Positions 21,944 through 41,295 are shown, counted from the stretch's first letter. The stretch: 64,000 bases of DNA from Alphaproteobacteria bacterium (GCA_963665325.3 CAXXWS020000002.1:672001-736000), one strand, 5' to 3'. Notes: a model not told the origin generated them from the sequence alone. Program-made: numbers and translations.

Positions 21944-21950
21944 AAGGGCG

Positions 21951-22634
21951 TCAGACCGGGCGGTCGCCCTCCAGAATGATGCGCCAGAGCGTCCGGGAGT
22001 GCTGCCGGTCGTAGTCTCCGTGGGCGCGGTGCATCGCGGCCCGGTTGTCGCAGACGACCATGTCGCCCTGCCGCCAGCTGTGGCGGTAGACGATGCCGTC
22101 CTGGATCGTGCGGTCCAGCAGGTCCTGCAGCAGCGTCTGCGAGGCTTCCGGCTTCATGCCCTCGATGCAGCGGGCCTTGGTGATGTGGAAATAGAGCGCT
22201 CTTGAGCCGTGCTCGGGATGGGTGCGGACCATGGGGTGGATCGCAGGGATATCGTATTTTTCCCAATCCTCGGCGCGCGTGTCGGTCAGGTGGCGGTCGA
22301 GCCCGTTGACCGTCTTCAGCCCTGCAAGGCGCTCCCGCTCGTCCGCATCGAGGCCCGCATAGGCCGCGCGCATGTTCGCGAAACTGGTGTCGCCGCCCTC
22401 GGGCGGGATTTCCACACCGTAGAGGATCGTCGCCTTGGGCGGGCGCTCGCGGTTGGTGTGGTCCGTGTGCCAGCGTTCGGCCGGGCGCTGTCCGTTGCGG
22501 TGCCAGATGCGCCCGATCATCGGTTGGTCCGGCATGTTGTGCTGGCTGTAATGCTGCGCCATCGGTTCGCCGAGCTGCGAGCAGGCCGCCAGATACTCGT
22601 CAGGCGTGAAGTTCTGTTCGCGGAACACCAGCAC
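21951..22634 (-). pseudogene. TauD/TfdA dioxygenase, 3' segment (227 codons) cut off from its 5' end by an integrative element
   Basis: Begins mid-motif (VLVFREQ); intact WHTD, HPMVRTHP and DNRAAMHR; the matching 5' part is at 39133-39268. Confidence 0.9.
22625..22634 (+). repeat. left att core ACACCAGCAC
   Basis: Identical to 39133-39142. Confidence 0.9.
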
Positions 22635-22754
22635 AACGCACCTGCGGTGCTAAGAGGTTGATAAAGCGTCTGTTTTTCCTCGTGCAATTGCAGGTCAGGG
22701 ACAAAAATGCAAGTGCATTTTCCCCCGCCTGCAACAGAACGCAGGAGGGAATCC

Positions 22755-23876
22755 ATGTCCAATGTCCGCCTCAGCCAGAGCCGGGTCGAGGCCCTTGAGG
22801 CCCGGAGAGCGCCATACGACATCCGCGACCGTGACTTGAGGGGCTTCGGCGTCCGGGTCCTGCCCTCTGGCGCCAGGCGATATTTCGTTCACAGCCAGCA
22901 TGAGGGACGACGTTTCTGGAAGACTGTCGGAGACGCCGGCAGCATCGGTCTTGACGAGGCCCGCCGACGGGCGACGGAACTGCTCGCCGCTTTCCGGCGC
23001 GACGAGCCGCCTGCCCTGCCGGAGGAGAGGCTGTTCGAGGCCGTTGCCGAGGAGGTCTTCGACCGCTACGGGCGGCACTGGAAGCCCCGGACCATGAAGG
23101 TCAACCGGAACTATCTGCGCAACCAGATCCTGCCCTGGTTCCGGGGACGGGATATCGCCGACATCGACCGGCAGGATGTGCAAAAGTGGTTCGCCTCGTT
23201 GCGCGCCACGCCCGTGGCGGCCGACCGGTCCGCGCCGGTGCTGTCGGTCATCATGCGCCAGGCCGAGCTTTACGGCTGGCGCCCGGAAGGCAGCAATCCC
23301 TGTGTGGGCATCCGCCGCTACCGGCGCAAGGGACGCGAGCGCTTCCTGTCCGGGCAGGAACTTCTCCGTCTCGGGACCGTGCTCGACAGCCACGAGGCTG
23401 CGCATCCGCGGGAGGTATCGTTCGTCCGCCTGCTGCTGCTGACCGGCTGCCGGGTCAGCGAGATTGCGACCCTCCAGTGGTCCGACTACCGGGAGGGCCG
23501 CCTGTTCCTGCGCGACGGCAAGGCCGGCCCCCGGACTGTGTGGCTGTCCTCGCCCGCGCGCGCCGTGCTGGCCCGGCTTCCCCGGAAGGGAAAGTGGGTT
23601 TTCCCCTCGCCGCAGCGGCGCGGGCCGCTCTCCGTGACGGTCTTCGAGACCTTCTGGCGCCGGGTCCGGCAGGAGGCGGGCATTGCCGACGTGCGGCTTC
23701 ACGATTGCCGCCACACATATGCCAGCATCGCCGTCATGCGGGGCGAAACCGTCACCACGACGGCGCGGCTGCTCGGCCACAACGACGCGGCGACGACGCT
23801 GAAATACGCCCATCTGTCCGACCGTTCGGCGCGCGAGGCTGCCGACGCCCTCGCCGCCATTCTCGGGGAGGTCTGA
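22755..23876 (+). CDS. tyrosine recombinase/integrase 1 with arm-type DNA-binding N-terminal domain
   Basis: RBS GGAGGG; RDRDLRGFGVRVLPSG N-domain; catalytic TGCR, DGK, HDCRH, LLGH and TTLKY. Confidence 0.93.
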   Translation: MSNVRLSQSRVEALEARRAPYDIRDRDLRGFGVRVLPSGARRYFVHSQHEGRRFWKTVGDAGSIGLDEARRRATELLAAFRRDEPPALPEERLFEAVAEEVFDRYGRHWKPRTMKVNRNYLRNQILPWFRGRDIADIDRQDVQKWFASLRATPVAADRSAPVLSVIMRQAELYGWRPEGSNPCVGIRRYRRKGRERFLSGQELLRLGTVLDSHEAAHPREVSFVRLLLLTGCRVSEIATLQWSDYREGRLFLRDGKAGPRTVWLSSPARAVLARLPRKGKWVFPSPQRRGPLSVTVFETFWRRVRQEAGIADVRLHDCRHTYASIAVMRGETVTTTARLLGHNDAATTLKYAHLSDRSAREAADALAAILGEV

Positions 23877-23879
23877 TCC

Positions 23880-25043
23880 ATGCCGGTACGGAAAAGGCTC
23901 ACCGACGCCGGCATTGCGCGGCTCCACCCCGAGACGCGCGAATACACGGTATGGGATACCCGGGTCGCCGGTCTCGGGGTCAGGGTCCGCCCCACCGGCA
24001 GCCGGACCTTCATCTACAGCTTCAAGACGGCCGGCGGCTTGCGGAAATTGTCCTTCGGCCCGGCGGTGCTCGGTAGGGTCGAGGAGGTGCGCCGCGCCTG
24101 TCTTGCGGCGGCGGCCGAGGCTGCAACGGCGGCTGAGACGGACGAGCGGCCCCGCGAGGCAGTGCCGCTCTTCCGGGATTTCGTTGCCGGCCCCTGGAAG
24201 GCGGACCGCTTCGACCGCTGCAAGCCTTCCACGCAGAGGAGCTTCGCCGGCATCCTGAAACGCCAGCTGCTTCCGGCCTTCGGGTCCCGCCGTCTCGACC
24301 GGATTACCCGCAGAATGGCGGTCCGCTGGTTCGAGACCTACAGCAGGACCGCTCCGGGAACGGCCAATGTCGCTCTCGACCTGCTGGGGCAGATATTCCG
24401 CCATGCGCGCGCCTGCGGCCATATTGCCGCCGATCCTGTCAGAGGCATCGCTCGCAATCCCGTGAGGAATCACACCCGGTTCCTGTCCCGCGAGGAAATC
24501 GCCCGGCTTCACCGGGTCCTTGACCGACACGCCGAAGGCTCCGCGTCGCAGGCGCAGCAGGCCGACATCGTCCGCCTGCTGCTGCTCACCGGCTGCCGCA
24601 AGGGCGAAATCCTGCGCCTGCGCCGGGACGAGGTGAAGGAGGATCGGCTGGAACTCGCCGACAGCAAGACCGGGCCGAGAACCGTTCTGCTGAATGCCGG
24701 CGCACGGAAAATCCTGGCGCGCCGCATGGCGCAGGGAGAAGGTCCCTGGGTCTTTCCTTCCGCCGGCGATCCGTCCCGGCATCAGTTCTACGGGCTTCGG
24801 CTCTGGTATGTCGTGAGACGCGAGGCGGGTATTGAGGATGTGCGCCTTCACGACCTTCGCCATACGGTAGCCAGCCAGGCCGTGCTGAACGGCGTGCCCT
24901 TGACCGTCACCGCCCGCCTCCTCGGTCACAGCGACGTGCGCATGACCCTGCGCTACGCGCATGTCGGAGACCGCGAGGTCGAAGCAGCGGCCGAGCGGGT
25001 CGGAGCGGCAATGGCCGCCGCGATGGCGCCTTGCCGCGACTGA
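23880..25043 (+). CDS. tyrosine recombinase/integrase 2 (paralog of integrase 1)
   Basis: WDTRVAGLGVRVRPTG N-domain; TGCR, DSK, HDLRH, LLGH and MTLRY; starts 3 nt after integrase 1. Confidence 0.93.
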   Translation: MPVRKRLTDAGIARLHPETREYTVWDTRVAGLGVRVRPTGSRTFIYSFKTAGGLRKLSFGPAVLGRVEEVRRACLAAAAEAATAAETDERPREAVPLFRDFVAGPWKADRFDRCKPSTQRSFAGILKRQLLPAFGSRRLDRITRRMAVRWFETYSRTAPGTANVALDLLGQIFRHARACGHIAADPVRGIARNPVRNHTRFLSREEIARLHRVLDRHAEGSASQAQQADIVRLLLLTGCRKGEILRLRRDEVKEDRLELADSKTGPRTVLLNAGARKILARRMAQGEGPWVFPSAGDPSRHQFYGLRLWYVVRREAGIEDVRLHDLRHTVASQAVLNGVPLTVTARLLGHSDVRMTLRYAHVGDREVEAAAERVGAAMAAAMAPCRD

Positions 25044-25369
25044 AGGGATGCGTCGCTTTCACCACCGCGCCGCGATTTCCACGCCGACAGTGTGCTGTGG
25101 CGCTTGCGTGCCGCTTTCCCTGCGGGTCGCCTTGAGCCCGAACGACAGGTTGGGCGCGGTTGCGGCTTCCGGTGTCAGCCGCCAGCCGAGGCTGTAGTCG
25201 CGCCCACCGGTGGCGAGGCCGAGGCCCATATGCGGTGCCGGTACAGCGACCGTCGAACGCCGGGAAGCCCCAGGCCGCCTTCATCGACCAGCGCGCCGAC
25301 GCCTCGCTGCTGCCCTCGCGATCCTCCAGCGGCTCCGCCGTGGACAGCGCATCCAGGCCGCCGCCCGCC

Positions 25370-25545
25370 CGCCCCGATCCTGAATCGGGCGCACATCCAG
25401 CCCGAAGCGGTCGGCGAACTTCTGCCGGCTCGGCTTCGTGCGCTTACGCAGCGCGACGATCCGCTAGGCGACAGGGTCGTCCACGATCCGGCAGGGCAAC
25501 GCCGTCTCGCCCCGCAGTGGGGTAGCACCTCGCCTGGCGCCGCAC
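25370..25545 (-). pseudogene. decayed XRE/HigA-like HTH antitoxin
   Basis: Manual translation GETALPCRIVDDPVA*RIVALRKRTKPSRQKFADRFGLDVRPIQD, with an in-frame TAG at 25464-25466 and frame breaks on both sides; boundaries approximate. Confidence 0.6.
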
Positions 25546-25689
25546 TGCTGAAATCGGGCAACCCATTGAGAAACCGCCGATATACAACTTCCCCTTTTTT
25601 GCTTTGGACCCTTCTCAATCGGTCCTTTTGGGTCCAAACTGTCGTCGAAGCGAGATGGGAAACTCTGTCAAGACGGCGGGAGCCAGAAA

Positions 25690-28600
25690 ATGAACATCCG
25701 TACCTTGTTCGGCATATCGGCGGCACTACTCGGTATGCTCCCGATTCAACTGTCACATGCCTATACAGTTCCCGATTCGTTAGTAAACACAGTCAGATAC
25801 TATTACGAATCCAATAAAAACAAATCTCCGACATATGGATGCAATTGGTTTCGCGTACTTATCGCATATGGAGACAAGGAAGCCGGGCATTGGCCTGGCG
25901 GAGGCAGTTGCAGTCTGGTGCCATATACCGTCGCAGAAGCAAAAGCATCTGAATACCAATGGAATGGCTGGACACCCATTCGCGAATCTCTGGAAAAGAT
26001 TGAAGCTGCCCCCCCCCCCCCCGCAGCCTAAGCCCCAACAGGCACAATCTAATACTCCCGTGCCAGAGTTTATTATCACTGGCGGCGGGCAAACAATAAC
26101 AGAAGGTGGATCGGTTACCTTCTATATAAACAAATCAAACACTGCTACTATGACTGGATCGATCACACTCAATATCACCATCACTGGCGGCGATGACTTT
26201 GTACCCAGTAATACCCTAACCGTAATTGTACCCAGTTCCGGTTCCAAATCTTTTACCGTTAATACAGTTCAGGATAGTGTGGATGACCCGGATTCTTCTG
26301 TTGTTACCGTTGCATTGGCAACTGGAACGGGATACACTATCAACAGCCTTTTGAATTCAGTCACATTTACGGTTCAGGATGATGATGCAGTAACGACCCC
26401 CATTCCTCCAAAAACCGTGAACCCCAAGAATTATTGTAACTTCAATACACATTCATATGCTGAAGAAAACATTTGTGTTTATTTAACACTCTCATCCAAT
26501 TCCAGTTCGATAATAGACGAAGGTGATGCGATAACCGCGACAGTATATACTGATAGGAATGTAAAGGATTTCAATGGACTCACTATCAATATCGCTATTG
26601 CCGACAACAACGGATATATAAACGGTGTAGTCCCGAGCTCTATCCATATCCCCCGCTTCAAAGGCAAGGCAACATTTACACTGAATACAGAAGATGATAA
26701 TATAGACGAAAACGATGGTGTGATTAAGGTCAGTATTTCTCCGGGAGCGGGTTATTTATTGACAGATGACGGACGCAATGAATTTGAAATTAATGTGCGT
26801 GACAACGATATAGGCCCGCCTCCGGTAATTACCATCAGCAGTCTTGGCGATATTACGGAAGGCAATCAGGCCAGATTCAATGTCGTGGCAACGCCCACTC
26901 CAAAAGGTCCTGTTGTGGTATATTACACGGTATCTCGCACAGGAGACTTTGACAATTATGGCGGCAAAGTCTATCTGAAAGCTATTACCAAATACGATAC
27001 ATTATTGTCCTTGGATACCGTAAACGACGCTGCAGATGAGCCCGACGGTTCCATCACTGTCACACTACAGGAAGACGATGAAGACGGATACGACTTGTCG
27101 GCCTATTATACATTATCCTCAACTAAAGCGGCTACCGTTGCAGTCAAAGATGATGATCTTTCAGAAGCAAACAAACTGGTTGAGAATGCCTGCGTTTCCG
27201 ACGCCATGAAAAACCGTGTAAAATACTACATCTCTGAAGTCCGCAGAGGCGCCGCCCATGTGTTGAAATGGAAAAATGCATTAAACATCCTCAGCGGTAA
27301 TGATAGCACCAAGGCGTTGGAAGATTTGCGAATCAGTGCCAAAGCCCAAAAAGATAGAGGCTGGTCGAGATGGGATGAAATTCATAAAGCGGTTGTCTGT
27401 ATGCAAGGTGCTTCTGGTGAACCCGTACTTGTGTTGGCAAGCGATGGCAATATTGTTACCGAAGGCAATACCGCTTCGGTAACGGTGAGTGGGTCACTGG
27501 CTTTCAGTTCCCCAACCGATATAGCGCTGTATATTAGCGGTGACTTCGTGACTGACAGTCCTCTGACATGTCAATTCCCCGCCGGTCAAACTGCACATGC
27601 ATGCGCAATAGTCACGAACGCAGCTAATGGCACCATAGATGCCGATGGCACTTTCAAAGTGGAGTTGAAGCCTGGAGCAGGATATATACTCGGCGATACA
27701 AATATCGTCAACATACCAGTTGCCGATGCCGACACCCCTACAATCACCATAAAGCAGATACCTGGCTCGGACGTTGTCACGGAAGGTGGGACGGCGAGCT
27801 TCAATTTTTATACTACCGATACCAGTAAGGCATCTTCTGTGAAGGTGAAGATTGTGGATGGCGCAAACTTTGTCTCCAGCGGCCAGGCTGGAACCAGAAC
27901 GGTGAATGTAGGTCCCGGCGGCGACGGAGGAGTTGGCAGTATAAGTGACCCATCAGTTTTAACCGTAGTTACCGACAATGATAGCGTTCCTGAATCCCCG
28001 AGCAGGATTACCGCTACTATTCAGCAAGGTTCTGGTTACAGGGTAGGCGCGGTTTATACTACCCGTGTCGCAGTCCAGGATGACTCAGATGGTGGCAGCC
28101 GCCATAACGTGAATAGCTATTATCTTGAAGGCTGCGATGAGGATCACCAGAACTGTAACCTGGTGGAATCTGAGACATTCACTTCGGCGGAATGTTTTAC
28201 AGCTCAATCAGTCCGAAAAAACAAATATGTGTTGCCGAGTGCCACTACCATTGAAAACAGCGCATATACTCTGAATCAGATCCGCGGCGCAGGCAGCGCC
28301 GTCGACTACGGCAAGCGTCCTACAGGCAGTCCGCACTTCCCCGCAAACAGAACGAAGTATGCGGCGGAGTTCGTTTATCCCGACGGCAAGGACTACTTCT
28401 CGGAGGACGAAGAAGTAACCGTGCGGTTTTATGTGGCAAACTATAATCCCAACTACCCGAATAGAGATGACAACTATGAGCAACCCACAGAAGGCTATCT
28501 ATGCTCGAAGGATAAAAACGGGACTATCAAGAAGGATTCCCGCTGGGTAAACGATTGGAAATGGGGTCCGGGTGGAGTCCAGGCTCCCGCGAGCCAACCT

Positions 28601-31600
28601 ACCGACTTTGCATCCACATATGAAAGCGGCCCGGATGGGGTCATAAAAGTCCATCCTGTTCCCAAGGACACGTTGATAGATTTCACCGGCGGGTACGGTG
28701 TGCCCATGAACCAGAACCATATAAAATTTCTCGTCACCGGAACCAGCGGCGTTGTTCGCCCTGTTGGTCTTCACGACTTGCACTTCAGTCCCGGCGATCT
28801 ATACAAGGATTACAAGTTTGTTGTAGGCGCCAACTGCCGTAGAGACGGTACGCTACCGCCTCAGGATCGCATAACAAACTTCAATAATAACTATGATGAC
28901 GGAAATAAATACTTCCGTCATGGCAGATGGGATTATACAGGCGACAATACCTTCAGAGACCCTGTAGGGGTGTATATCAGCGATCAGAGGAACTATTCAT
29001 GCGAAACAGGCGAAGCGTACGGCACTTCATGTAGCGGCAATTCCGGTTATGGAACTCCTATCTATTGCATGAAGCCTGATGACCAAGGACAAGTCACTCT
29101 AAGCAGCTTTGGCGTTTCAGGTAATGGCGGTTCCTGGGCTGGGAACAATCTGAAAGCGAAAATCAGGCCCAAGGCGGCCGGTGAAGATGCTTTTGTTGTC
29201 GAGGGATATGTCAAGAGGATCACAGAAGGCCATCCACTGACGTATTTTATTACGACCCATGATGGCCAGGAGCCCAAGCAGGGGGGAACAATTCATCTGA
29301 AGGCAACTGCTGTTGCCGGCGGAGCGCCGTTTGAGAACGATCAGAAAACCAAGGTTGTTGACATTCCAATAACCATTGGTAATGGCTGGTTTAGCCGCGC
29401 GGCTCCATATAACGGAGGTTTTATGTTTCAGGATTTCCTTACGGATGATGACAGTAAGAATGAAGGCGACTCTATTGTCAGGCTTGAAGTGGCCGAAGGT
29501 AACGAGTTCCCAATAAGATTTGCGAATGGTGAAGGTTACTTTGAATATACGGTGCTCGATAATGAAGCCGTCACCCTTAATTCGACATTGACCAACAACG
29601 GTATTTCCGAAACCAGCGGAACGGCGACACTGACCGTTAAGCTGCCGGAAGGAACTGTTGATGGCGATGATGCAGATATGATAGTGGATATTCTTCCGGC
29701 ACCCTATACATATTTCCACAATCATATCGACTGGACAGATCCCAGTGGTAATGGCGACAAGAGGCAAACGGCCACAATAGAAGCGACGGGTTGCGCGAGT
29801 GCTGTTCCCGCAACTGAAGCGGCTCCATATTTCAGATGTGTAGTATCCGCCTCCACCGCGGCGCAGTCGCTAACCTTTACATTCAGGGCACTGCCGCAGG
29901 GTGATGAATCGGATGACCGGAATCCAGGTCACACATATGATTTGGGCTTCCATGTAGGGCATTACCAGGAAGCGCAAAGCCTGCAACCGCAGTATGAGAT
30001 AACGGGCACAAGAGACGAATACAAGACGCTGGACGGTGTACTGTCGGTAGCAGGTGACGGAACAGACTTTACTGGGGCCAATGCAATCAAGGTACAGTCG
30101 GTTCCCGGTATTTTCGGCAACACTGGCATTGATAGCATCGTAATGGGCGCTTTCAAAGGCAACTATGGCGATGGCCAAATACCTTCCGATGCAACGCCGC
30201 TTGCCAATATAACGTTCTCGGAACCCGCTTCGAATGATGAAAGCCTCTTGAACAATGGCGATACGGTATATATCGCTTTCAAGAGAACATCGTCTAATCC
30301 GGAACAGTCTAAAGTGGTATCTACGACCTTCGATGTAGCTTTCAATCATGGGACAGCGATACCGGGCAAGGATTTCAGGGTATATTCATACGATCCCCGA
30401 AAATATTGCAAGGGTAGCGCCAGTTTCACGACCAACGCTCAAGGCCGGGTGATTGCCCAATGCGATGGTACATGGAGCACGGATACCAGAGACTGGCATT
30501 CATATGATTATGGTAGAGGCGTGAGCAACAGCATAGGCGATAGGGTTACGGTGGGAAGGTCTCTCAATGAGTGGGTTGTGGGTTTCAAACTGGTGCCCAT
30601 GAGGGATAATCTGGATGAAACTGCTGAAACTGTGATCGGGAGGTTTTTCAGAAAATCTATATCGTCTGCTAAAGGTGTATATCACTCACATTATACAAAG
30701 CTGCAAGGCGAAGTAAATGCAACTCTCGAAAATGCAGGTGCGGGTACCGTCCAAAACATAAGTAATGTGCAAGTAACTATACCTGATGTCACAGCACCAG
30801 AAGGCACACCGACAAAGTTTACCATGACGGTAAACTTCCCAAGTAATCAAAATGGCTGCCTTACCAGTAAACTGGATACGGATGCGCTTTGGGCATATCC
30901 TACCTTTTTGCAACCTGCTGTTGCTGGAAAGGCGCATGTTGGCAAACTGGTAAATCAGGGAGATTTTCTGATTGGTAATACTGCTACCGATAATGGACTA
31001 CAGTCGAATTCACACAGGTTTGCAGATACACGTTTCAAAATCTGTAGCACCAATACAAAGAAGGCCATTACCAGAGACTTTTACATATACGCACATTCTG
31101 ACGGGATAAATGATAATGGCGAAACGGCTAAATTGAAATTACAGGTGCCAAGCTATACTTCCGGTGGTAAGAAGTACGACAATAAAGTGACGGTAACGAA
31201 CGGAACATTGACCATTACCAATGATGGCCCGCTTCCTAAGGAGTGGATTGCGAGGTTCGGTCATGTCGTAGCCAGTGAAACGGTGGAAGCGGTGTCGGAC
31301 AGGGTAAGGGCGGACAGGAAGCCCGGTAGCAGCAGTCTTTCATTCGGAGCAATGCCTGGCGAAGAAGTGGCTATCACACAGGGTTCGGAAATAGTCGAGG
31401 GCTCTTCTTTCCATATAACCAGTGCCGAAAGGGATGGAGCCACATTGTCCGCATGGGGCAAGGTTTCCACATCCTCATTCGACGCCAGTGTAACCGACAT
31501 GGATCTGGATAGTGATAATACCCACGCAATGTTGGGTATTGATTATGCCGCAGGTTCATGGCTGGTCGGTGTTGGAGTCGGCTTGCATAATGGTGAGGGA

Positions 31601-32305
31601 GGAGCCGAAATGCTTGGTGAGGCTCTGGTATATGACATCGAAAGCAAGGTATCGAATGTCTTTCCATACGGGTCGATTACGGTGGGCAGCACAAAGGTGT
31701 GGTCGACGATCGGTTACGGTACCGGTGAAATCAGTATAAGACAGGAGTTGGGCAGTGGTGAAAAGAGTGACCTGGGAACTGCCGATACGGAATGGTGGAT
31801 GGCGGCTACAGGGCTCCGCTCGACGATGTTCGATGCCAAACATTACAGTATGGCAATTGTTGGCGATGTATTCTGGACCTCAATCGAATCTGGCGAGGGT
31901 GCTGGATATAGGGCGGCAGAGGCGGAGTCACACCGTGAAAGATTGGGTCTGGAAGTGGATATGGACTTTGACAGATTGTCATTTACCCCGTCGATATTTG
32001 CCAGAGCCGATGGCGGAGATGTTGGTAGTGGGACGGGAATCGAGTTAAATGCTTCGGTAAGCTGGGAAACATTGGAGGGATTGTTTCTTACAGGCTCGGG
32101 CAGCCATGTATTGGATTCGGATAATGAGTTCAATGCATACGCTATCGGCGCTGAATGGCAAACCGGATTCGGCCGTCCGTCGGTTTCCTGGAATCGGGAA
32201 AACTACAGCCTTGGATGGTCCAGGGAGTTCAGCGGTGGTGTGTTGGGCATAAACACTATACCCGATGAGCAAGCCATGAGATTGGACCTTTCTTTGAGGT
32301 TCTGA
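25690..32305 (+). CDS. giant secreted Calx-beta-like repeat / autotransporter-like surface protein, frameshifted at a C14 tract (2204 aa if C13)
   Basis: 25690-26031 has RBS GGGGAG and a signal peptide. The downstream frame has repeated ITEG...F...DDxxDE..DG...V.L..G.GY.....V.DDD modules and a C-terminal beta-barrel-like region ending LDLSLRF. Visibly AT-richer than the host. Confidence 0.8.
26009..26022 (+). repeat. poly-C(14) homopolymer, candidate slipped-strand ON/OFF switch
   Basis: C14 gives a stop at 26029-26031; C13 or C16 joins the two frames. Confidence 0.8.
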
Positions 32306-32680
32306 TATCCCTTTCAGAAGATGGGGGCTTCGGGCAAAGGATCTCGGGTATAGGTAAGGACGACAGCCGACCGCGGGCCGGTGAAGCGGAGCCCGGTCGA
32401 AGCGTTCCTTTCCTGCCTGTCCGATTGTGTTGACGCTTTGGAGTGAAGCCCTCGAAGCTATTGGGGGGAATGGCAACCAGTATGGCGGAGTGCGATAGGG
32501 CGAAAATGGCATGACGGATGCGAAGCGGGATGTCGACGAAGACGGTTTTCTGGAGAAGAACCGGGAATAGTCTTATTGGCATGAGGGGGAGTAGGTCCGT
32601 CGACCGGTCGGAAATCGGGCTTGACGCCAATCACCAGTGCCTATAGCTGGCAAGTACCGAAGTGGCAGAGAGGGGACGCT

Positions 32681-33397
32681 GTGCCAAAGCCTATATCCAC
32701 CCCGACCGCGAGGCAGGGTATCCAGATCGGCGACAGGTTGATGGTCGAATGCGAAGACGGGCTTTTCTACAAGTCGGTCGTTATCGGGTTGTCGGAAAAG
32801 AGCATAAACATCCTGTTCGACAGTGGGGGCGAACAAGCCGAAATAAGCCGGCAGGCGGCTACGGATCCTGTCAGGGGGATATGTGCGCTCGATCAGCGGG
32901 AATGGCTCGATGCAGGCCTTTCCGGCGAGAAAGCAGACCAATTGTTGCAAGCGGAGCATTCAGGGCAAGGGGATTTCCCCGGAATGGAGAGCGCAGCGCC
33001 GCAAGGCCGTCCGCGCCGCCGGCGGCGGACGCGCGAGGAAATCGCGGCAAACAAGGCAAACGCTCCCGCCAGCTTGGAGCATAATCGACCGTCCGGCGTC
33101 GTGGACGGCATGGGGGGCCAGCTAAAGGGCTACCGAAACAAGCTGGCGGCTCTCCCGACACTGACGCTCGAGAGCATGATGGCCGTTTTCAGGAAGGCGA
33201 ACCCGGACGACCTGACAGAAGCGCAAAGCGCTATCTATGGCGAGTTCCACGATATGCGCCAGCTTGAAGAAGCGTTCCCCGATAAACTGCCGTCGCTGGA
33301 TCCGAACGATTATGACGCCTGCCGGGCAATGAATCAGGAAAGCACGACCGATGATCTGCTGGCACCCACAATGTATGAGAGAACCAATGCGGTATAG
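32681..33397 (+). CDS. hypothetical protein with Tudor/SH3-like N-terminus and Arg-rich patch
   Basis: GTG start after AGAGGGG; IQIGDRLMVECEDGLFYKSVVI...ILFDSG; PRRRRRTREEI; followed by a terminator. Domain call is by eye only. Confidence 0.5.
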   Translation: MPKPISTPTARQGIQIGDRLMVECEDGLFYKSVVIGLSEKSINILFDSGGEQAEISRQAATDPVRGICALDQREWLDAGLSGEKADQLLQAEHSGQGDFPGMESAAPQGRPRRRRRTREEIAANKANAPASLEHNRPSGVVDGMGGQLKGYRNKLAALPTLTLESMMAVFRKANPDDLTEAQSAIYGEFHDMRQLEEAFPDKLPSLDPNDYDACRAMNQESTTDDLLAPTMYERTNAV

Positions 33398-33422
33398 CCT
33401 CCAAAGGGCATATCGTTCCAAG

Positions 33423-33446
33423 GGGAGGCTTCGGCTCTCCCTTTTT
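33423..33446 (+). terminator. Rho-independent terminator
   Basis: GGGAGGC-TTCG-GCTCTCCC stem (cUUCGg loop, one bulge) followed by TTTTT, 25 nt after the stop at 33397. Confidence 0.7.
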
Positions 33447-33637
33447 GGTTCAGCAAGAAGGGCCGAAAGGCTTTAAGACGCTCAGACGCATATTCTGGCT
33501 CAACTTCAACAGCACGGACAAAAAGCCGGGCACCGCTCTTCCTGCCGGTCTCCCGGAGGCGGCCGGCTCCAGGCGGAGCGCGAGGTGGGCGCGTCGGGTG
33601 TGTGAACCACGCGCCGAAGGGCAGGCTCGGCACTCCA

Positions 33638-34948
33638 TCAAAAGGTCTTCGAAAAACCGATTGTGGCACCCTGATTGCGCCAGGCGTTAATCGGGATACT
33701 GGAGCGGTTCCATTCGTGGAAATATCCGATATACGGAGCGAATCCTTGGAGTTGCAGTGCGCGGTGAAGCAAGTTCACGGAGAGGCGCGTCTGCCGGTCC
33801 GAGCGCGTCTTTCCGAAGAGAGGGGTTGCGCCGTCGTAGCGCCGCCAGTGCATGGCCATTCGGGGCGAGATGGAGAGGCCGCCTGCGAAGGCATGGGAGA
33901 CCCCGAAAGCGAAGCCGCCAAGCCGGCTGCCGTGACGGTCCTCGCGGGCCCCGAGATGTTCGAGGTCGAGTTCGACCCGGAACGTCGTCCGGGAGTCGAG
34001 TGCGTAGTCGAGGCCGGGCCGCAGGGTAACGGTCCAGCCGTTCAGCCCGGGATGGTCCCGATGGCCGCGGCGCTCCGCGTTGAGCGCGGCGTCGAGCCGC
34101 AAGGCCGGCGACAGGCGCACGCGGCCGCGCACCCAGGGGCCGATCCCGTCGCTGTAGCGCTTTCCGCCCAGCCATCGCCGGCTGAGGCGAAGGCCGCCGG
34201 ATGCGCTCCCCCGATCAAACAGCCGCGCGGCCCCGATATCGCTTTGGACCGAGATATCGTTCCAGTCGGATTTCTCGTAGAGCTTTGCCGCCGCCGAAGC
34301 CGCCAGCACGCCGCGCCAGTCGTCGGCAAGGACGGACGAATATTGTGCGCCCGTGCCGAGCAGCAAGCCCGTTCCGGATGCTTCGCGGGCATCCTCGTCG
34401 AGACGGAACGGCACGCCGCCGATACGTATTTCGTCGTCATCCGTGCGCTTTGCCGGATTGCTCTCCGGCAGAATCGCCGCGGAGATCGAGGCCGACCATC
34501 GCTTGCGGGCATCGATCCGGTCGAGCCACGCCTCCACCGCCTTCTCGACGGAAGATGGCAGTTCATCCGCGAGCGAAGCCTCGAAATGGAACCGGGCTTT
34601 TCCGTCGCGTCCGAGCAGGCCGTAGACGCGGGCCAGTTCGAGCCTGGCCCGCGTCAGCTCCGGGCGGAGAGCCAGGACCGCCTCGAAACGCCGGGCGGCG
34701 TCGCGCAGACGCCCGAGCCGGGCTTCTGCGCTGCCCAGCAGGAACAGCCGCTCAATATCTTCTTCCTCGTCGCCGGGTCGTGCCTGCTCCAGGAATGCAT
34801 GCGCGTCGCGGAAACGGCCGGCATCGAACAGAAGCCGACCGAACTGCATGTCGTCAGGCACGTTCCGAACATCGGCCGTTTGGCCGAGCGCAGTCGCGGC
34901 GAACAGCAGCGCCGCCGCGACCGCAGCCGGGAGTGCGCCCGCGCGCAC
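33638..34948 (-). CDS. surface lipoprotein assembly modulator (SLAM / type XI secretion translocon): TPR + beta-barrel
   Basis: Signal peptide; TPR-like segment (RLFLLG...RPELTRARLELARVY...ARFHFE); barrel ending RSSIPINAWRNQGATIGFSKTF; adjacent TbpB-like cargo. Confidence 0.85.
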   Translation of the reverse strand: MRAGALPAAVAAALLFAATALGQTADVRNVPDDMQFGRLLFDAGRFRDAHAFLEQARPGDEEEDIERLFLLGSAEARLGRLRDAARRFEAVLALRPELTRARLELARVYGLLGRDGKARFHFEASLADELPSSVEKAVEAWLDRIDARKRWSASISAAILPESNPAKRTDDDEIRIGGVPFRLDEDAREASGTGLLLGTGAQYSSVLADDWRGVLAASAAAKLYEKSDWNDISVQSDIGAARLFDRGSASGGLRLSRRWLGGKRYSDGIGPWVRGRVRLSPALRLDAALNAERRGHRDHPGLNGWTVTLRPGLDYALDSRTTFRVELDLEHLGAREDRHGSRLGGFAFGVSHAFAGGLSISPRMAMHWRRYDGATPLFGKTRSDRQTRLSVNLLHRALQLQGFAPYIGYFHEWNRSSIPINAWRNQGATIGFSKTF

Positions 34949-34960
34949 CTGCGGGCGGCG

Positions 34961-36787
34961 CTACTGGCGGGCACCGCCGAACCAGCCGTGAAGCAGCTTG
35001 CCGTCCGCTCCCGTCGCCTGCATGACGCCGGCGGCCTCGGCGACGGCTGGCCCGTAGAAGGCGCCCGAGACGGTGCCGTCATAACCCAGACCCGACAGGC
35101 TGCCCGACAGGGCGTTCCCCTCGATGGCGCCGTTGAAGATCGTGAACTCGCCGGCAGTCGCCTGGTACGATTCACGCTGGAAGTAGCCCGGGCTATGCTC
35201 CAGATCCGAAATGCGCCCGGAGACGCTGCCCGCCGCGAAGTCCGCCGACAGGGTCAGCGATCCGCTATAGCCCTCGGCGTAGTTGGAGGAGGCGCGCCCC
35301 TCTCCCGGGGCCGGTGCGAAGACATAGGCGGCCGCCTTGCCGGCATAGGTCGCCGTTCCCGTCTGCGGCATGCTGGCGGAGGCGGTCCTGGTTCCGTGGA
35401 CAACCGATTCCCAACTAAAGGAGTCTGCCGAACTCGTGGTCCCATCGGGGTAAACTCCGACCAGCCAGTCCTTCACGTTGTAGTGCTGTCCTTGCGGCAC
35501 CCGGTCCGCGTAGTGCGGGCGCCGGAACCAGGCCAACAAGGTGCCGGTTCTTTTCTGATAAACCTCGGCCCTGCTTCCGGTGCCGATGTCATCGACGCTC
35601 ATGGACACGGTCTGTAGCGTCCCGTCAACCAGATAGGAGATCGTGTATCCGCCGGCATTATCCGCTTCGATGGCCGTGATCCGGTTGTTCGCGTCCTGAG
35701 CCACAATGCGGGGCGATGCCGAGTTGTAGCCGAGGCGGTTTACGCCGGCCTGCAACGGCTCATTGTCGGTGTGTTCGCCGACGACATCCGCACGTGTGCC
35801 GCCGAGATATCCTATCACTGCCCAATCGTCGTCGTCGCCGCCGGCGCGGGCCGCAGTGAGAGACGCGCCGAACTCGCGCGCGTTCGGCCCGTAGAACTGG
35901 CCCGATACATCGCCGGCGAACCCGCGCACGCTGTCGCCCAGAGGCACATTCGCATCGTCGTCCACACCCGTCAGGGTGGCCGTAAACCCATCGTTGGCGA
36001 TCTCGCCATCGGAGATTTCGAGCCGCGTGGTCGAAGCGAGGTTCCGGTAATCGGACTCGCCCGGCCCTCGTATCCTCAGACGGAAAATGCGTCCGTCCAA
36101 AGTCGCATCCGCAAAGTCAGCCGTCAGCACCAGATTGCCTTGAACCCGGGAACGGGCGACCGAGGTGGAGACGGAGTCGAGAGTATTGTCATAGGCGTCG
36201 GCGTGCATCCGCCCGATGTAGGTCGCGGTTCCCGTCGGCATGTCCTCCGGACCGGTCGGGATGCCGTAAGTCCAGACAAGCCTTGCCCCGTCCGGATGAT
36301 GGGAACCGAGAACATCGAAATAATCGAATTCCGACCCGATGCCATAGTTCTCACCGTCGAACGATCCGGCAGAGCTCCAGAACCAGTACTGTCGGCCGTC
36401 TACGTCCTTGGTATAGGAGGTTGTGTCCCGGGTTGCGAAGTCGCCCTTCGAGAAGTGCACGGTCGTTTCGGTGCCGTCGATGACATAGGTCACATGGAAT
36501 CCGTTGTCGCCGTCGCTCGCCACGGAGGAGATCGAGAAACGGTCGCCCACGGAAGCCCTGTCGGCACTGTAGTCGAACTCGAGCGCCTTCGAGACGGCCC
36601 CGAACATTTCGGTCGGATCCGGAACGAGCTCGGCCAGGGTCGGCGCCGGAGGCGTGGCGGGCGGCAGCGGCATCGGGCCGCCTGTCTTGCCGGCAGTGCT
36701 TCCTCCCCCGCCTCCACAGCCGGCAAGGGCGAGCACGGCAACGAGCGGAAGGGCAATCGAGGTCTTGCGCAGGACGGTAAAAGTCAT
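34961..36787 (-). CDS. two-lobed transferrin-binding-protein-B-like surface lipoprotein (T11SS cargo)
   Basis: Lipobox LAGC + GGGGGS linker; two copies of MPxGTATYxG...ADF..G.I...G.FYGP...E..G. Confidence 0.85.
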   Translation of the reverse strand: MTFTVLRKTSIALPLVAVLALAGCGGGGGSTAGKTGGPMPLPPATPPAPTLAELVPDPTEMFGAVSKALEFDYSADRASVGDRFSISSVASDGDNGFHVTYVIDGTETTVHFSKGDFATRDTTSYTKDVDGRQYWFWSSAGSFDGENYGIGSEFDYFDVLGSHHPDGARLVWTYGIPTGPEDMPTGTATYIGRMHADAYDNTLDSVSTSVARSRVQGNLVLTADFADATLDGRIFRLRIRGPGESDYRNLASTTRLEISDGEIANDGFTATLTGVDDDANVPLGDSVRGFAGDVSGQFYGPNAREFGASLTAARAGGDDDDWAVIGYLGGTRADVVGEHTDNEPLQAGVNRLGYNSASPRIVAQDANNRITAIEADNAGGYTISYLVDGTLQTVSMSVDDIGTGSRAEVYQKRTGTLLAWFRRPHYADRVPQGQHYNVKDWLVGVYPDGTTSSADSFSWESVVHGTRTASASMPQTGTATYAGKAAAYVFAPAPGEGRASSNYAEGYSGSLTLSADFAAGSVSGRISDLEHSPGYFQRESYQATAGEFTIFNGAIEGNALSGSLSGLGYDGTVSGAFYGPAVAEAAGVMQATGADGKLLHGWFGGARQ

Positions 36788-37148
36788 CGCGAAAGCTCCT
36801 GTTCGGGATTGAGAGAAAGGCGGCTGACAAACGGTATCCGATCGGCCTGACGCAGGATGTGCAGGCCGGGCCGGGGGCGCAGCGGGATCGATAGGGTGGA
36901 GTGAGTGCGGTTCCGCCGAACGGCGCGTGGCGGCAAAAAACGAACTGCGGTTGGACCGGTCGCAGTGAGGCCGGGCGTCCGAATGCCGACAACTGCGCGG
37001 CAATATGTCCGTTCCGCCCAAGGCGAACGAAATACGGGACGCCGCCGTCTGCTACGGCGGCAAAGGGCTTCGGAAGGGAGGAGGTGCCGGTCTCGGCGAC
37101 CGGGAGTGCGGGACTGCCCTAGCGGGCTACAACATGCGCTGACATCAA

Positions 37149-37274
37149 GAGGCGCGAGGCGCGAGGCGCGAGGCGCGAGGCGCGAGGCGCGAGGCGCGAG
37201 GCGCGAGGCGCGAGGCGCGAGGCGCGAGGCGCGAGGCGCGAGGCGCGAGGCGCGAGGCGCGAGGCGCGAGGCGC
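37149..37274 (+). repeat. perfect tandem repeat (GAGGCGC)x18
   Basis: Counted directly: 126 bp with no mismatches. Confidence 0.95.
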
Positions 37275-37287
37275 GATTCTACCCGCT

Positions 37288-37554
37288 ATGCCAACCGACA
37301 GCATCAAACCCTGTCGTCCCCTCTCTGACTTCGACTGGAATATAGTCAGCCTCTCCGGGCCGGCGCAAGCTCGAAGTGCCGTTAGCTTTGGGTTCGGGTT
37401 CACCGCCGCGGACGATGGCGGGCGCGAGGTGTTCGTCCATTACCGCGCCCTGTCGCGCGCCGGCCTGGAGATACTGGAACCCGGAGAGCGCGTGAGCTTC
37501 CGGATCGAAGAGGTCCCGCGCGGCCTTCAGGCCAGCGACATCGCGCCGGTCTGA
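37288..37554 (+). pseudogene. cold-shock-domain gene with missing/replaced N-terminus
   Basis: GFGFTAADDGGREVFVHYRAL...LEPGERVSF...RGLQA matches CspA RNP1/RNP2 and C-terminus, but the GxVKWFN first strand is absent. Confidence 0.6.
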
Positions 37555-37575
37555 CGCCGCCGGCGCCATTGTCCT

Positions 37576-38025
37576 TCAGAGCAGCTCGCCCTGCGGGCGG
37601 GGCTCCACGCCGGATGTCCCGGACTTCTCCGGCTCCTCCGGCGCCAGGGCCGCGGCGACCCGCTTCGCAGCCGCTTCGCCGACCGCAGGCGCCAGGACCG
37701 CGCACAACTCCGCCGCCCGGCCCGAAGCGGCAAGCTCGCCCGCCCAGGCGGCAAACAGCACGGCAAGCCGCTCATGCAGCCCGGAGCGCAAAATGCCGCG
37801 ACCGCTCTTCCCGGACAGAAAGGGCCGCAGATGGCGCACGGCCTCCAGCAGGCCGCGTTCGCCCTCGAGCGTCCGGCCCCCCGCCTCCGCCAGCGCCGCG
37901 TCCACAAGATAGCGCGAGATCGATTTCCCCTGCCCCCGCGCCCGGTCTTCCGCCAGCGCCCATTCCTCGTCCGTCGCCGAGATCGAAAGCCGCACAAGCG
38001 CCGAACCGGGCAGCGGGCGGCTCAT
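37576..38025 (-). CDS. ribbon-helix-helix / MobC-like protein
   Basis: VRLSISATDEEWALAEDRARGQGKSISRYLVDAAL pattern; start overlaps the upstream gene stop. Confidence 0.65.
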   Translation of the reverse strand: MSRPLPGSALVRLSISATDEEWALAEDRARGQGKSISRYLVDAALAEAGGRTLEGERGLLEAVRHLRPFLSGKSGRGILRSGLHERLAVLFAAWAGELAASGRAAELCAVLAPAVGEAAAKRVAAALAPEEPEKSGTSGVEPRPQGELL

Positions 38026-38318
38026 CTCCCGCCGTCCTTCGGCGCCGCTTCTTCCGGGCTGCCTTCATCGGCCACGGCGCCGCGTATCATGTCCGCGAAA
38101 CCGATCAGCCGGCGGACCCCGTCATGCAGTTCGGCCCGTTCCGCCTCCGACAGGCCGGGAGCCTCTCCCTTGCCGCCGCCGTCCCCCAGCGCCCGCTCCA
38201 GCACGAAGGACGAAACCGACACTCCCGCCGCTGCCGCCCGCTCACCGAGCGTATCCCGCTCCCCCGGGCTGCAATACACGCTGCGGGGACGTTTCGCAGT
38301 CTCGGCTCTTCTCCGCAT
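38022..38318 (-). CDS. ribbon-helix-helix / MobC-like protein
   Basis: RPRSVYCSPGERDTLGERAAAAGVSVSSFVLERAL pattern; start at MRRRAET. Confidence 0.65.
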   Translation of the reverse strand: MRRRAETAKRPRSVYCSPGERDTLGERAAAAGVSVSSFVLERALGDGGGKGEAPGLSEAERAELHDGVRRLIGFADMIRGAVADEGSPEEAAPKDGGR

Positions 38319-38423
38319 GCCGCAGTCCTCCAGTATACGCTCCGGGCTCTGCAACGGCTTCCCTTGCGGCGTCCTCACTGCGCCGACACCCTCCGGCCCG
38401 GACAACCGGCCGCATCCCGCACA

Positions 38424-38642
38424 TTGTGGCGTAACAGCACAAGATTGTCGACCTTATGGCGCAACGACACAAGCCCGGCGCCTCCATGCACGACGATGCA
38501 GAGACTTTATGGTGTTGCGCCATAAGAGCGCCGGTCTTGTGGCGTGGCAACACAAGACCCGCTCCGTTTATGGCGCAATGACACAAGACATCCTTATGGC
38601 GCAGCACCATAAGGCGGCAGGCTTGTGGCGCAACTACACAAG
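38424..38642. repeat. array of seven 20-bp quasi-palindromic repeats TTRTGG-N8-CAYAAG
   Basis: Copies start at 38424, 38454, 38507, 38537, 38568, 38594 and 38623 (e.g. ttatggcgcaacgacacaag). Confidence 0.85.
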
Positions 38643-38736
38643 CATCGCCGCGCCCGCCCGGTCAAGGGCATTGACGGACCCTTTCGGGCATGAAACACAG
38701 GATCGATATGACTGTTCCCCGGTGGAACACAGGAGC

Positions 38737-38773
38737 ACCACATCAATGTGGTATCCATGTTCACATGGATACC
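38737..38773. repeat. two overlapping perfect inverted repeats
   Basis: ACCACAT-CA-ATGTGGT (38737-38752) and GGTATCCATGT-TC-ACATGGATACC (38750-38773). Confidence 0.8.
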
Positions 38774-39132
38774 CATGGTCCCGTGCATCATCATCCGCGA
38801 CTCCACAAAGCCGCCACATGGAACACGACGTTCAGGGCGGAAGTCGATGCAAATCCTCGACATGAGGATTGGGTGCTCCGGAGATACGGCGCGACTGCCT
38901 CCCGGTCCCACACTCAGCGCCCGCAGGCGCCACGCCCGGTGCTCCTGTTGTATGTCATAAAATCCCCAATCTGCAACTGCAATGCGATTCCTACCACGAT
39001 CTCATACAGCATAATCGTGACACAAGGCGCTTGCATCGACCCCCGTAATGCCTTATTGTGGCTCACCTTATGAGGAAGGCAGCGCTTCAATCCACGGGTG
39101 TCCCTATAGTCCTGAACTGAGGTTTTATTGGC

Positions 39133-39142
39133 ACACCAGCAC
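39133..39142 (+). repeat. right att core ACACCAGCAC
   Basis: Identical to 22625-22634. Confidence 0.9.
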
Positions 39143-39268
39143 GATGTGCTCGGCGAGCGCGGCCGCCAGGGCCTCGCGGTCCCCGGCGGACAGTTCCTGG
39201 CGCAGGTCGAGGCCCTCGATCTCCGCTCCGAGGGAAGGATGCAAAGGCTTCGGCGTCGGGATGCTCAT
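39133..39268 (-). pseudogene. TauD/TfdA dioxygenase, 5' segment
   Basis: Not in ORF track. RBS AGGAGG, then MSIPTPKPLHPSLGAEIEGLDLRQELSAGDREALAAALAEHIVLV, then CQ-stop from element DNA. Confidence 0.9.
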
Positions 39269-39279
39269 GGCGGGCCTCC

Positions 39280-40770
39280 TCATTCGTCTCCGCGGCTGCG
39301 GCGCGCGGCCATTCGGGCGGCGATGGCGGGCCAGGCGAGGCCCAGGACCGCCAGCGCGAAGAAGCCGCAGACAATCGGGCTCTCCAGCAGCCGCAGCCAG
39401 TCATTATCGTACATGATCATCGACTGGCTGAGCGTCTCTTCCAGCATCCTGCCGAGAATGAGGCCCATGACCAGCGGGGCCGCGCCGAAGCCGTGCCGGC
39501 GCATGAGAAAGCCGACCGCGCCGGAGAGCAGCATGATCCAGACATCGAAGAAGGAGCCGCTCAGGCTGTAGGCACCGATCACCGAGAAACCGAACACCAT
39601 GGGCCAGAGGAAGGTGCGCGGGATGAGCGTGATCCGCGCGAAGACCTTCGCGCCCACAAGGCCGATGATGAGGAAGGCGACATTGCCGACCGCCATGGCG
39701 CCGAAGATGGCATAGACGAACTCGGGCGTATTCTGGATGAGATAGGGCCCGGGGCGAAATCCGTGTGCGATGAGCGCGGCCAGGATGAGCGCCGTCGTGC
39801 CGCTGCCGGGTATGCCGAGGGCGAGCGTCGGTACCATGGCGCCGCCGGTCGCGGCATTGTTGGCGGCCTCGGGGCCGGCGATGCCCTCCGGCACGCCGGT
39901 GCCGAACTCGTGCTTGCGCCGGGACCACCGCTTGGCTTCGTTGTAGCCCATGATGGCGGCAACCGTGCTGCCTTCCGCAGGCAGGATGCCGATGAAGGTG
40001 CCGATGCCGCTGGAGCGCAGCACCGTGCCGGTGACGGCGCGAATGTCTTCCCTGCTCGGCAGCTTCACGACCACGGACTTGATGCGCTCCAGCGCCATGT
40101 CCGCCGTCTGGCTCTGGACGAGCATTTCCGAGACGGCGAAAAGGCCGATCAGAACCGGCACGAACTCCACGCCTTCGGTCAGTTCGTGAAAGCCGAAGGT
40201 AAATCGCTCGATCCCGGTGCCGAGATGCGTGCCGATGGTGCTGATGAGCACGCCCACGGCTCCGGCAATCAGGTTGCGCAGCGACGACCGGCCGCTGATC
40301 GAAGCGAGCATGCTGAGCGCGAAGACGGTGAGCGCGAAATATTCCGGCGGCCGGAACGACACCGCCACCTTTGCGAGCAGCGGCGTGGCGACGATGAAAA
40401 CGACCAGGGAGAGAAGGCCGCCCGTGACGCTGGAGACCGCCGCGAGTCCGAGCGCACGCCCTGCTTCGCCGCGCCGGGCCATGGGATAGCCGTCGAATGC
40501 AGTGGCCACGGCCGGCGGCGCGCCCGGCGCATTGATGAGGATCGCGGTGATCGAGCCGCCGAACGTGCCGGCGCAATAGAGCGCCGCCATCATGCAGATC
40601 GCCGACACCGGCTCCAGCATGATCGTGAAGGGCAGCAGGAGCGCGATGGCGAGCGGCGAGGACAGGCCGGGCAGCGCGCCGAACAGCACGCCGATCAGCA
40701 CGCCCGCCATTACCAGCGCCATGTTGTAAAGGCTGAAAGCGAGCCCAAGACCTTCCAGGATCGGTTCCAT
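39280..40770 (-). CDS. tctA: tripartite tricarboxylate transporter large subunit
   Basis: GALPGL, GGSITAILINAPG, PEAANNA and LGIPGS. Confidence 0.93.
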   Translation of the reverse strand: MEPILEGLGLAFSLYNMALVMAGVLIGVLFGALPGLSSPLAIALLLPFTIMLEPVSAICMMAALYCAGTFGGSITAILINAPGAPPAVATAFDGYPMARRGEAGRALGLAAVSSVTGGLLSLVVFIVATPLLAKVAVSFRPPEYFALTVFALSMLASISGRSSLRNLIAGAVGVLISTIGTHLGTGIERFTFGFHELTEGVEFVPVLIGLFAVSEMLVQSQTADMALERIKSVVVKLPSREDIRAVTGTVLRSSGIGTFIGILPAEGSTVAAIMGYNEAKRWSRRKHEFGTGVPEGIAGPEAANNAATGGAMVPTLALGIPGSGTTALILAALIAHGFRPGPYLIQNTPEFVYAIFGAMAVGNVAFLIIGLVGAKVFARITLIPRTFLWPMVFGFSVIGAYSLSGSFFDVWIMLLSGAVGFLMRRHGFGAAPLVMGLILGRMLEETLSQSMIMYDNDWLRLLESPIVCGFFALAVLGLAWPAIAARMAARRSRGDE

Positions 40771-40779
40771 GCGCGCCGT

Positions 40780-41283: not shown

Positions 41284-41295
41284 GAGTGACGCCCC

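Follow-up and report, generated by a model that had tools for sequence, protein, structure and literature searches.

A 64,000-nucleotide stretch of DNA from an alphaproteobacterium (GCA_963665325.3, CAXXWS020000002.1:672001-736000; hereafter the window, with positions counted from its first letter and its own genome designated G000) contains a 16.5-kb integrative element that splits a predicted TauD-family dioxygenase gene lying behind the transporter genes tctC, tctB and tctA. The element has an integrase gene adjoining one end and an identical core on both flanks, its target has uninterrupted counterparts in relatives, and the same site has received independent insertions, all hallmarks of a site-specific integrative element. 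We consider it probable, at about 0.8, that it arrived by conservative site-specific insertion as one of many independent, fairly recent events produced by a mobile multi-copy family, and that it is not a fixed developmental switch. A preliminary description, made from the sequence alone, had set out two alternatives, namely a recent insertion and an excision switch coupling a catabolic gene to the presence of a surface-protein cassette; of these, the former fits the data presented here. The single event is of an ordinary kind, and the two-recombinase family behind it is the more novel part.

The split gene and the ends of the element

The 10-bp sequence ACACCAGCAC occurs in exactly two copies in the window, one at each junction, where the preliminary description had placed them (Table 1); the chance expectation is 0.01, and at least two copies were found in 0 of 100 shuffles. 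Between the copies lie 16,498 bp, or 16,508 bp with one copy counted, in agreement with the size first reported. The recombinase gene int1, a match to Pfam PF00589, begins 120 nt inside the left junction. No tRNA gene was found in the window or at seven sibling loci, nor any Rfam family at the latter, so the family inserts without targeting tRNA genes.

When positions 39268-39143 are joined by script to 22634-21951, they form one stop-free frame of 269 amino acids (aa), as the preliminary description had it, which the element interrupts after codon 42. The 3' part matches PF02668 with an E-value of 6.7e-47 and 161 bits (cut-off 27) over profile positions 39-266 of 267, so only about 38 N-terminal profile positions are missing from it, and it pairs with solved TauD-family structures from their residue ~45-59 onward. 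Its WHTD motif and distal histidine are conserved in that alignment; we take them to stand at the HxD...H metal-ligand positions of the TauD family, in line with the intact iron ligands claimed earlier. By the PF02668 match and these aligned residues, the gene belongs to the TauD/TfdA Fe(II)/2-oxoglutarate dioxygenase family. The NCBIfam taurine dioxygenase equivalog NF007104 scored 113.6 bits against a cut-off of 313, with the 227-aa 3' piece alone scanned.

A GGAGG lies 6 nt before the TauD ATG and overlaps the stop codon of tctA, and a convergent gene terminates 8 nt past the TauD stop. Hence, the earlier placement of the gene, with its own ribosome-binding site, as the last of a tctCBA operon is a fair one, the three transporter genes being confirmed by their Pfam matches. 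Equally well borne out is the statement that the element supplies no replacement 5' end, because on the side of the 3' part the frame is closed by a TAG that stands 6 codons upstream, and the start of int1, at a distance of 120 nt from the junction, is on the opposite strand. In its present state the 5' part reads 6 further codons through the repeat copy and the element end before a stop (open reading frame, ORF, 39125-39283). The 42 codons would stay coupled to tctA and the other 227 would be left without a promoter or proper start, so that this TauD paralogue is very probably silent while the element is present.

The recombinase pair and the gene for the surface lipoprotein assembly modifier (Slam) are multi-copy in G000, and such repeats can mislead assemblers into misplacing a repeated element into a gene. 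We regard an artefact of this kind as scarcely credible: the same junction is present in four separate records (the window, the genome G011 and the metagenome contigs L104 and L106), the 10-bp repeat agrees exactly between the two ends, and a 340-nt contig from a public sequencing run, whose source may be the window's own sample, covers 22361-22700 with two differences and so confirms the left junction. Four public runs were compared over 20801-37100, a range with the right junction outside it, as contigs, in which rare excision products are invisible; no contig there joined the two flanks as an empty site would, a joint that this range could not have shown, and among the contig ends listed none was loose at 22634; neither observation bears on excision.

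Empty and occupied sites among relatives

Among 17 species of the genus, 14 have an orthologue of the split gene, and the site is empty in 12 of these and occupied in two (G000 and G011); three have no orthologue. The joined flanks of the window are colinear over the junction with the loci of 10 of 11 relatives (84-88% identity), as well as with G009 and a contig of G004, and the empty sites consist of exactly both flanks with a single core copy. This comparison, which the preliminary description had proposed as a check, also revealed a homologous 11.3-kb element in G011 at the identical base. The G000 and G011 elements have the recombinase pair, Slam, the lipoprotein and the right end in common at 87-93% nucleotide identity and differ in the middle. 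The same TauD orthologue is occupied in L104 and L106 by elements of a second clade, 84% identical to that of the window.

The presence of homologous elements at the same base-exact site in G000 and G011 could reflect one ancient insertion, inherited vertically from their common ancestor and lost elsewhere. However, synonymous divergence (dS) between G000 and G011 is 0.125 for int1, 0.159 for int2, 0.29 for Slam and 0.305 for the lipoprotein, all below the host values of 0.429 for tctA, 0.465 for tctB and 0.394 for TauD. Further, G012, the closest to G011 by its TauD gene (dS 0.264) and nearer to it than G000 is, has an empty site. These two observations argue that the insertions are not one inherited event; the ancient origin would also require many precise losses, and in L107 an element of 95% identity occupies another gene. 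We therefore hold it to be very improbable. Repeated occupancy of the core by two clades, together with an element dS below that of the host, instead points to recurrent, fairly recent, sequence-directed insertion, and to this extent the recent insertion of the preliminary description is upheld.

As had been stated there, neither half of the split gene has decayed. The median dN/dS (ratio of non-synonymous to synonymous divergence) between split and intact TauD genes is 0.173 (18 pairs, range 0.115-0.206) and that between intact genes 0.175 (36 pairs), with G008 excluded for a stop codon and G004 and G009 because they were fetched later. Private non-synonymous and synonymous changes number 4:6 in G000 and 2:7 in G011, inside the spread of the intact genes, and both halves are open in G011. 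In G008 the site is empty and the orthologue (L007) is colinear except for an in-frame stop at codon 133, which marks it as a pseudogene unless it is an error of sequencing; going by this stop, the gene appears dispensable in that lineage.

An intact split gene invites comparison with regulated gene integrity, as in skin in sigK, the nifD element, phage regulatory switches and helper-embedded phage-inducible chromosomal islands. Under such a mechanism, reversible excision would rebuild the dioxygenase gene behind tctCBA and remove or silence the surface-protein cassette. The window element is like these systems in splitting a gene without a replacement end and in having its own recombinase that could rebuild it, and disruptive integrations of this sort are candidates for the mechanism in the accessible part of PMC10111431. 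Excision in silico restores an intact frame, both recombinase genes are intact, and there is no decay of either half in G000, G011 or L104. The caution to be drawn is that an intact split gene need not mean a switch. We judge the switch distinctly improbable, because the element is not kept at the site across the lineage: most species with the gene have it empty, two different element clades occupy it, and element dS falls below host dS. Moreover, the same elements split unrelated genes (Usp-like, isochorismatase-family and a third that is presumably of the metallo-beta-lactamase fold, where Pfam gave no match), the cargo is unlike between G000 and G011, and the gene is apparently dispensable in G008, with its in-frame stop at an empty site. 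The window element thus differs from the systems named above in not being fixed at its site and in having many other targets. The excision switch raised in the preliminary description accordingly found no positive evidence, the site being mostly empty and the targets promiscuous.

A family with paired recombinases and an ACACC-anchored target

Seven occupied sites carry the core ACACCAGCAC: those of the window, G011, L104, L106, L025, L107 and L105. As L104-L107 were found with a pattern requiring the core, they are informative on its surroundings and not on the core itself. In L025 and L107 the targets are TauD paralogues (33% and 29% identity, respectively), and in each the split falls at the residue homologous to 42; in L105 the element lies in a Usp-like gene whose sequence starts with VLVC at the junction. 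The element sequences fall into two clades, the first with the window, G011 and L107 (94-95% identical) and the second with L104, L106 and L105 (99.3-100% identical mutually; 84% to the first). With the two clades distributed in this way over the targets, near-identical elements are found in different genes and different elements in one gene.

The recombinase genes int1 and int2 encode proteins of 373 and 387 aa; the Arm-DNA-bind_3 Pfam match is in int1, and the N-terminus of int2 resembles it by eye only. About 11 int1/int2 pairs are present in G000. Of 62 public loci that contain a full-length int1 relative (identity of at least 40%), mostly from uncultured Alphaproteobacteria by record title, an int2 relative lies no more than 200 nt downstream of int1 in 60, and the other two are too short to tell. 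The left-end motif CGCAYC-N3-GRTGCTA occurs 50 times in 49 related loci, with ACACC 5-7 nt upstream in 46 of the 50, while outside ACACC the flanks are unrelated; in G000 itself ACACC stands upstream at 10 of 13 such places.

Two siblings in G000 have both ends defined. One, of 11.2 kb (C1:1786961-1798175), is flanked by ACACCGGGCAG, and its joined flanks yield no convincing gene. The other, of 30.8 kb (C4:~999727-1030539, L015), is flanked by ACACCTTCG and interrupts an isochorismatase-family gene (PF00857, profile 3-130 of 175). Both have GGC ahead of the right repeat copy, like the window element, and in all, both ends are known for four elements, in each of which the 9-11-bp repeats on the two sides are identical. 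The isochorismatase-family target of the C4 sibling is also occupied in another genome (L040). In L039 (5579-5895), the boundary between a further related element and a TauD paralogue falls exactly in the bases that code for the WHTD metal-binding motif. In L033 and L034 the elements adjoin part of a gene that matches no Pfam family; from its conserved motifs we take it to have a metallo-beta-lactamase fold.

We propose that the element was inserted by conservative site-specific recombination into the DNA coding for the V-L-V-F strand of the dioxygenase, with strand exchange inside the 10-bp segment common to element and target that now stands on both flanks. Catalysis would be by a hetero-oligomer of the presumably co-transcribed P4-type recombinases int1 and int2, which, given their strict linkage, we infer to act together. 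In this scheme, ACACC would be the fixed recognition part and the bases that follow it the overlap, differing between sublineages and probably having to match the target in that of the window. By the same route, excision of the element may be possible.

A different course is suggested by strand-biased circularizing elements and GInts, in which movement is of a copy-out, transposon-like kind: recombination of the left end with the right would produce a circular copy without emptying the donor site, the family would spread replicatively, and excision would never rebuild the TauD gene. The multi-copy state of the family, with 11 pairs in G000 and three copies elsewhere that are 99.7-100% identical at unrelated sites, agrees with this course, as does the variation of those copies in the 3 nt after ACACC; moreover, in the accessible part of PMC10214605, multi-recombinase elements are reported to recombine one end with the other and to leave no empty site behind. 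Still, we consider copy-out movement unlikely here. The identical 9-11-bp repeats at both ends of four elements are the classical signature of reciprocal exchange in a shared core, the recombinases have no tfp- or srap-like gene between or behind them, and copy number alone cannot tell replicative from conservative movement.

Several points weigh against conservative, fairly recent and sequence-directed insertion. No recombination has been observed, and the circle junction, whose search had been suggested in the preliminary description, gave 0 matches to a degenerate 21-nt pattern in a collection of metagenome contigs that may not hold the organism. Recency and continued selection on the split gene account equally well for the lack of decay, which cannot separate the two, and by their int1 dS of 0.125 the elements of G000 and G011 are not brand new. 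A GTG with a preceding AGGTG is present at the junction, which makes a truncated TauD product possible. As to site choice, G000 has 20 further copies of ACACCAGCAC (11.6 in all are expected from base composition), all unoccupied and about seven of them in TauD-like VLVF contexts, so the 10-mer alone fails to explain it. Right ends are known for four elements only. Finally, three copies in one other genome (L068, L069 and L076), 99.7-100% identical over their first 2.3 kb and 95.5-99.8% over the whole stretch compared, with unrelated flanks, have ACACC in common and differ in the next 3 nt; hence, an overlap specified by the element may not hold family-wide, and the target contributes some of the variable bases after ACACC in that sublineage.

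Beyond the single insertion, we tentatively suggest, at somewhat less than even odds, that these loci represent an undescribed class of two-recombinase, transposon-like elements. They would always lie beside ACACC followed by a short sublineage-specific stretch, home to DNA coding for conserved enzyme motifs (VLVF and WHTD of TauD, VHYT of isochorismatase), reach at least 10 copies per genome in uncultured Alphaproteobacteria and shuttle cassettes of Slam and surface lipoproteins. If so, every insertion would knock out, in a potentially reversible manner, a single gene from a large set of paralogues. The ACACC-anchored, two-recombinase family and its tendency to insert into motif-coding DNA of paralogous enzyme families appear to be undescribed: a full-text phrase search of the open-access subset found no description of the paired-recombinase architecture, which is not proof of absence. 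What makes the family notable is the combination of an obligately paired recombinase module, a very short and partly invariant target, a high copy number and repeated motif-coding targets in expanded enzyme families. Its related recombinase pairs with different cores offer a natural series for asking how tyrosine recombinases are retargeted.

More distant relatives were also encountered. The Shewanella oneidensis MR-1 megaplasmid (L111, 3330-5998) has two overlapping recombinase genes (376 and 456 aa), annotated only as integrases, of which the first is 41% identical to int1; ACACC precedes them, and their left end resembles the subterminal repeat of the family. A DNA search of a plasmid collection gave a single, uninformative match, of 323 nt and 76%, to an Ensifer replicon. 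G000 additionally holds runs of two to four adjacent tyrosine recombinases with ~34-39% identity to int1 (C1:615437-619994, C3:1061945-1065285, C3:6951-9235, C5:283-2567 and C4:37567-39876), which are possibly of the recombinase-in-trio (RIT) type.

Relation to described systems and the cargo of the element

Islands with P4-type integrases that lie in coding genes resemble the window element in having an arm-binding integrase beside one end, a short identical flanking core, a conserved coding target (here near its 5' end) and both occupied and empty sites among relatives. Those in dusA and trmE, which are examples, preserve their target gene. Islands of this sort are the subject of PMC4482086 and PMC8409611, and the accessible part of PMC12424338 gives 43.4% as the proportion of islands integrated into coding sequence in the TIGER/Islander resource. 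In contrast to such islands, the window element has two adjacent recombinases instead of one and no replacement gene end, and its family has many copies per genome, many targets and a core of ~10 bp with an invariant ACACC.

Elements with several recombinases, as far as the accessible part of PMC10214605 covers them, include the strand-biased circularizing elements (intA-tfp-intB-srap), GInts (three recombinase-like genes plus one), RIT trios and Tn554 (tnpA, tnpB, tnpC). The same source describes features that the window's family has too: more than one tyrosine recombinase at the left end, imperfect inverted repeats at or just inside the termini, a short target and copy numbers like those of transposons, with conjugation genes lacking. 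The differences are that the window element has two genes of ordinary size with nothing between them or directly after, that the flanking repeats of its family are identical over 9-11 bp as against a 6-bp footprint, and that its hosts are Alphaproteobacteria, plus the 41%-identical Shewanella megaplasmid pair. Assignment to the strand-biased circularizing elements, by the operon definition of PMC10214605 as far as accessible, was rejected: int1 stops at 23876 and int2 starts at 23880, with 3 nt and no gene between them, and the next ORF has no Pfam family. Nor is the element a RIT, as it has two adjacent recombinases and not three, trios and quartets being found elsewhere in G000. With XerC/XerD it has in common two paralogous tyrosine recombinases, presumed to bind different half-sites of one core; the window pair differs in having an arm-binding domain and in being on a mobile element and not a chromosomal housekeeping pair, and its NCBIfam Xer scores, 57.9 and 49.3 bits, are far below the cut-offs of 335 and 330.

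Table 1. Features of the element and its surroundings in the window
Feature	Position	Strand	Remarks
TauD 3' part	21951..22634	-	227 codons and stop; Pfam PF02668; aligned with solved TauD-family chains
Left core copy ACACCAGCAC (attL)	22625..22634	+	Identical core at the left junction in G011, L025 and L104-L107
Integrative element proper	22635..39132	+	Missing at 12 orthologous sites; homologous element at the G011 site
Family-wide left-end motif CGCAYC-N3-GRTGCTA	22637..22652	+	5-bp palindrome with 3-bp spacer
Left subterminal repeat TTGAT...TGTTTTTCCTCGTG	22658..22684	+	Inverted relative to 39066-39090; seen by eye in left-end and right-end alignments
int1, tyrosine recombinase with N-terminal Arm-DNA-bind_3 domain	22755..23876	+	Pfam PF00589, PF13356, PF22022, PF14659
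int2, second tyrosine recombinase	23880..25043	+	Pfam PF00589, PF22022; 3 nt after int1 stop
2156-aa protein with autotransporter-like C-terminus	25835..32305	+	In low-GC (44-50%) segment; no Pfam match
258-aa ORF	32621..33397	+	No Pfam match; no paralogue in G000
Slam, with TPR repeats	33638..34948	-	Pfam PF04575, 87.6 bits (cut-off 22)
Slam-dependent surface lipoprotein, TbpB-type barrels	34961..36787	-	PF01298, 86.7 bits (cut-off 26); NF041636, 85.5 (cut-off 80); start set at the ATG preceding the lipobox
Perfect heptanucleotide repeat (GAGGCGC) x 18.3	37149..37276	.	Between divergent surface-lipoprotein and cold-shock-domain genes
Cold-shock-domain protein	37288..37554	+	Pfam PF00313, E 9e-14
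Two ribbon-helix-helix NikA-like ORFs	37576..38405 (37576-38025, 38022-38405)	-	PF21983: second 29.6 bits (cut-off 27), first below
Right subterminal repeat ...ATGAGGAAGG...	39066..39090	+	Inverted partner of the left repeat; seen by eye in the sequence
Right core copy (attR)	39133..39142	+	Preceded by GGC, as in two sibling elements
TauD 5' part	39143..39268	-	42 codons
tctC, tctB, tctA transporter genes, upstream of the split gene	39280..42246	-	Pfam PF03401, PF07331, PF01970

No phage or conjugation genes were found among the genes of the element. The surface-protein cassette noticed in the preliminary description is present: a Slam gene adjoins the gene for a TbpB-barrel lipoprotein, which characterizes a Slam-dependent surface lipoprotein system, and the 2156-aa protein has features that a search of a protein atlas relates, at 0.95, to clusters of autotransporter beta-domains, a result to be taken as a lead only. 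With the element, a host would gain the Slam/surface-lipoprotein pair and the autotransporter-like protein. The C-terminal domain of the latter has about 25 paralogues in G000. Its gene and the orphan 258-aa ORF occupy a low-GC (44-50%) segment of 8 kb (25500-33600). This segment is absent from the G011 element, where ~3.3 kb of other DNA, coding for another TbpB-barrel lipoprotein and a helix-turn-helix protein, stands in its place, and the replacement looks like a swap of cargo inside the element.

Slam-like matches occur at about 15 further places in G000 (including C5:255393-258644, C4:1096724-1100114, C1:1789479-1790059 and C1:1229642-1230720), and two of these copies appear fragmented or frameshifted. 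As several of them adjoin other int1/int2 pairs, cassettes of Slam and lipoprotein look like a recurrent cargo of the family. Slam-dependent surface lipoproteins thus travel on mobile elements in uncultured Alphaproteobacteria. The (GAGGCGC) tract beside the lipoprotein gene, which has 34.3 copies in the G011 element (L024, 4652-4891) against 18.3 in the window, is a candidate hypermutable tract for phase variation.

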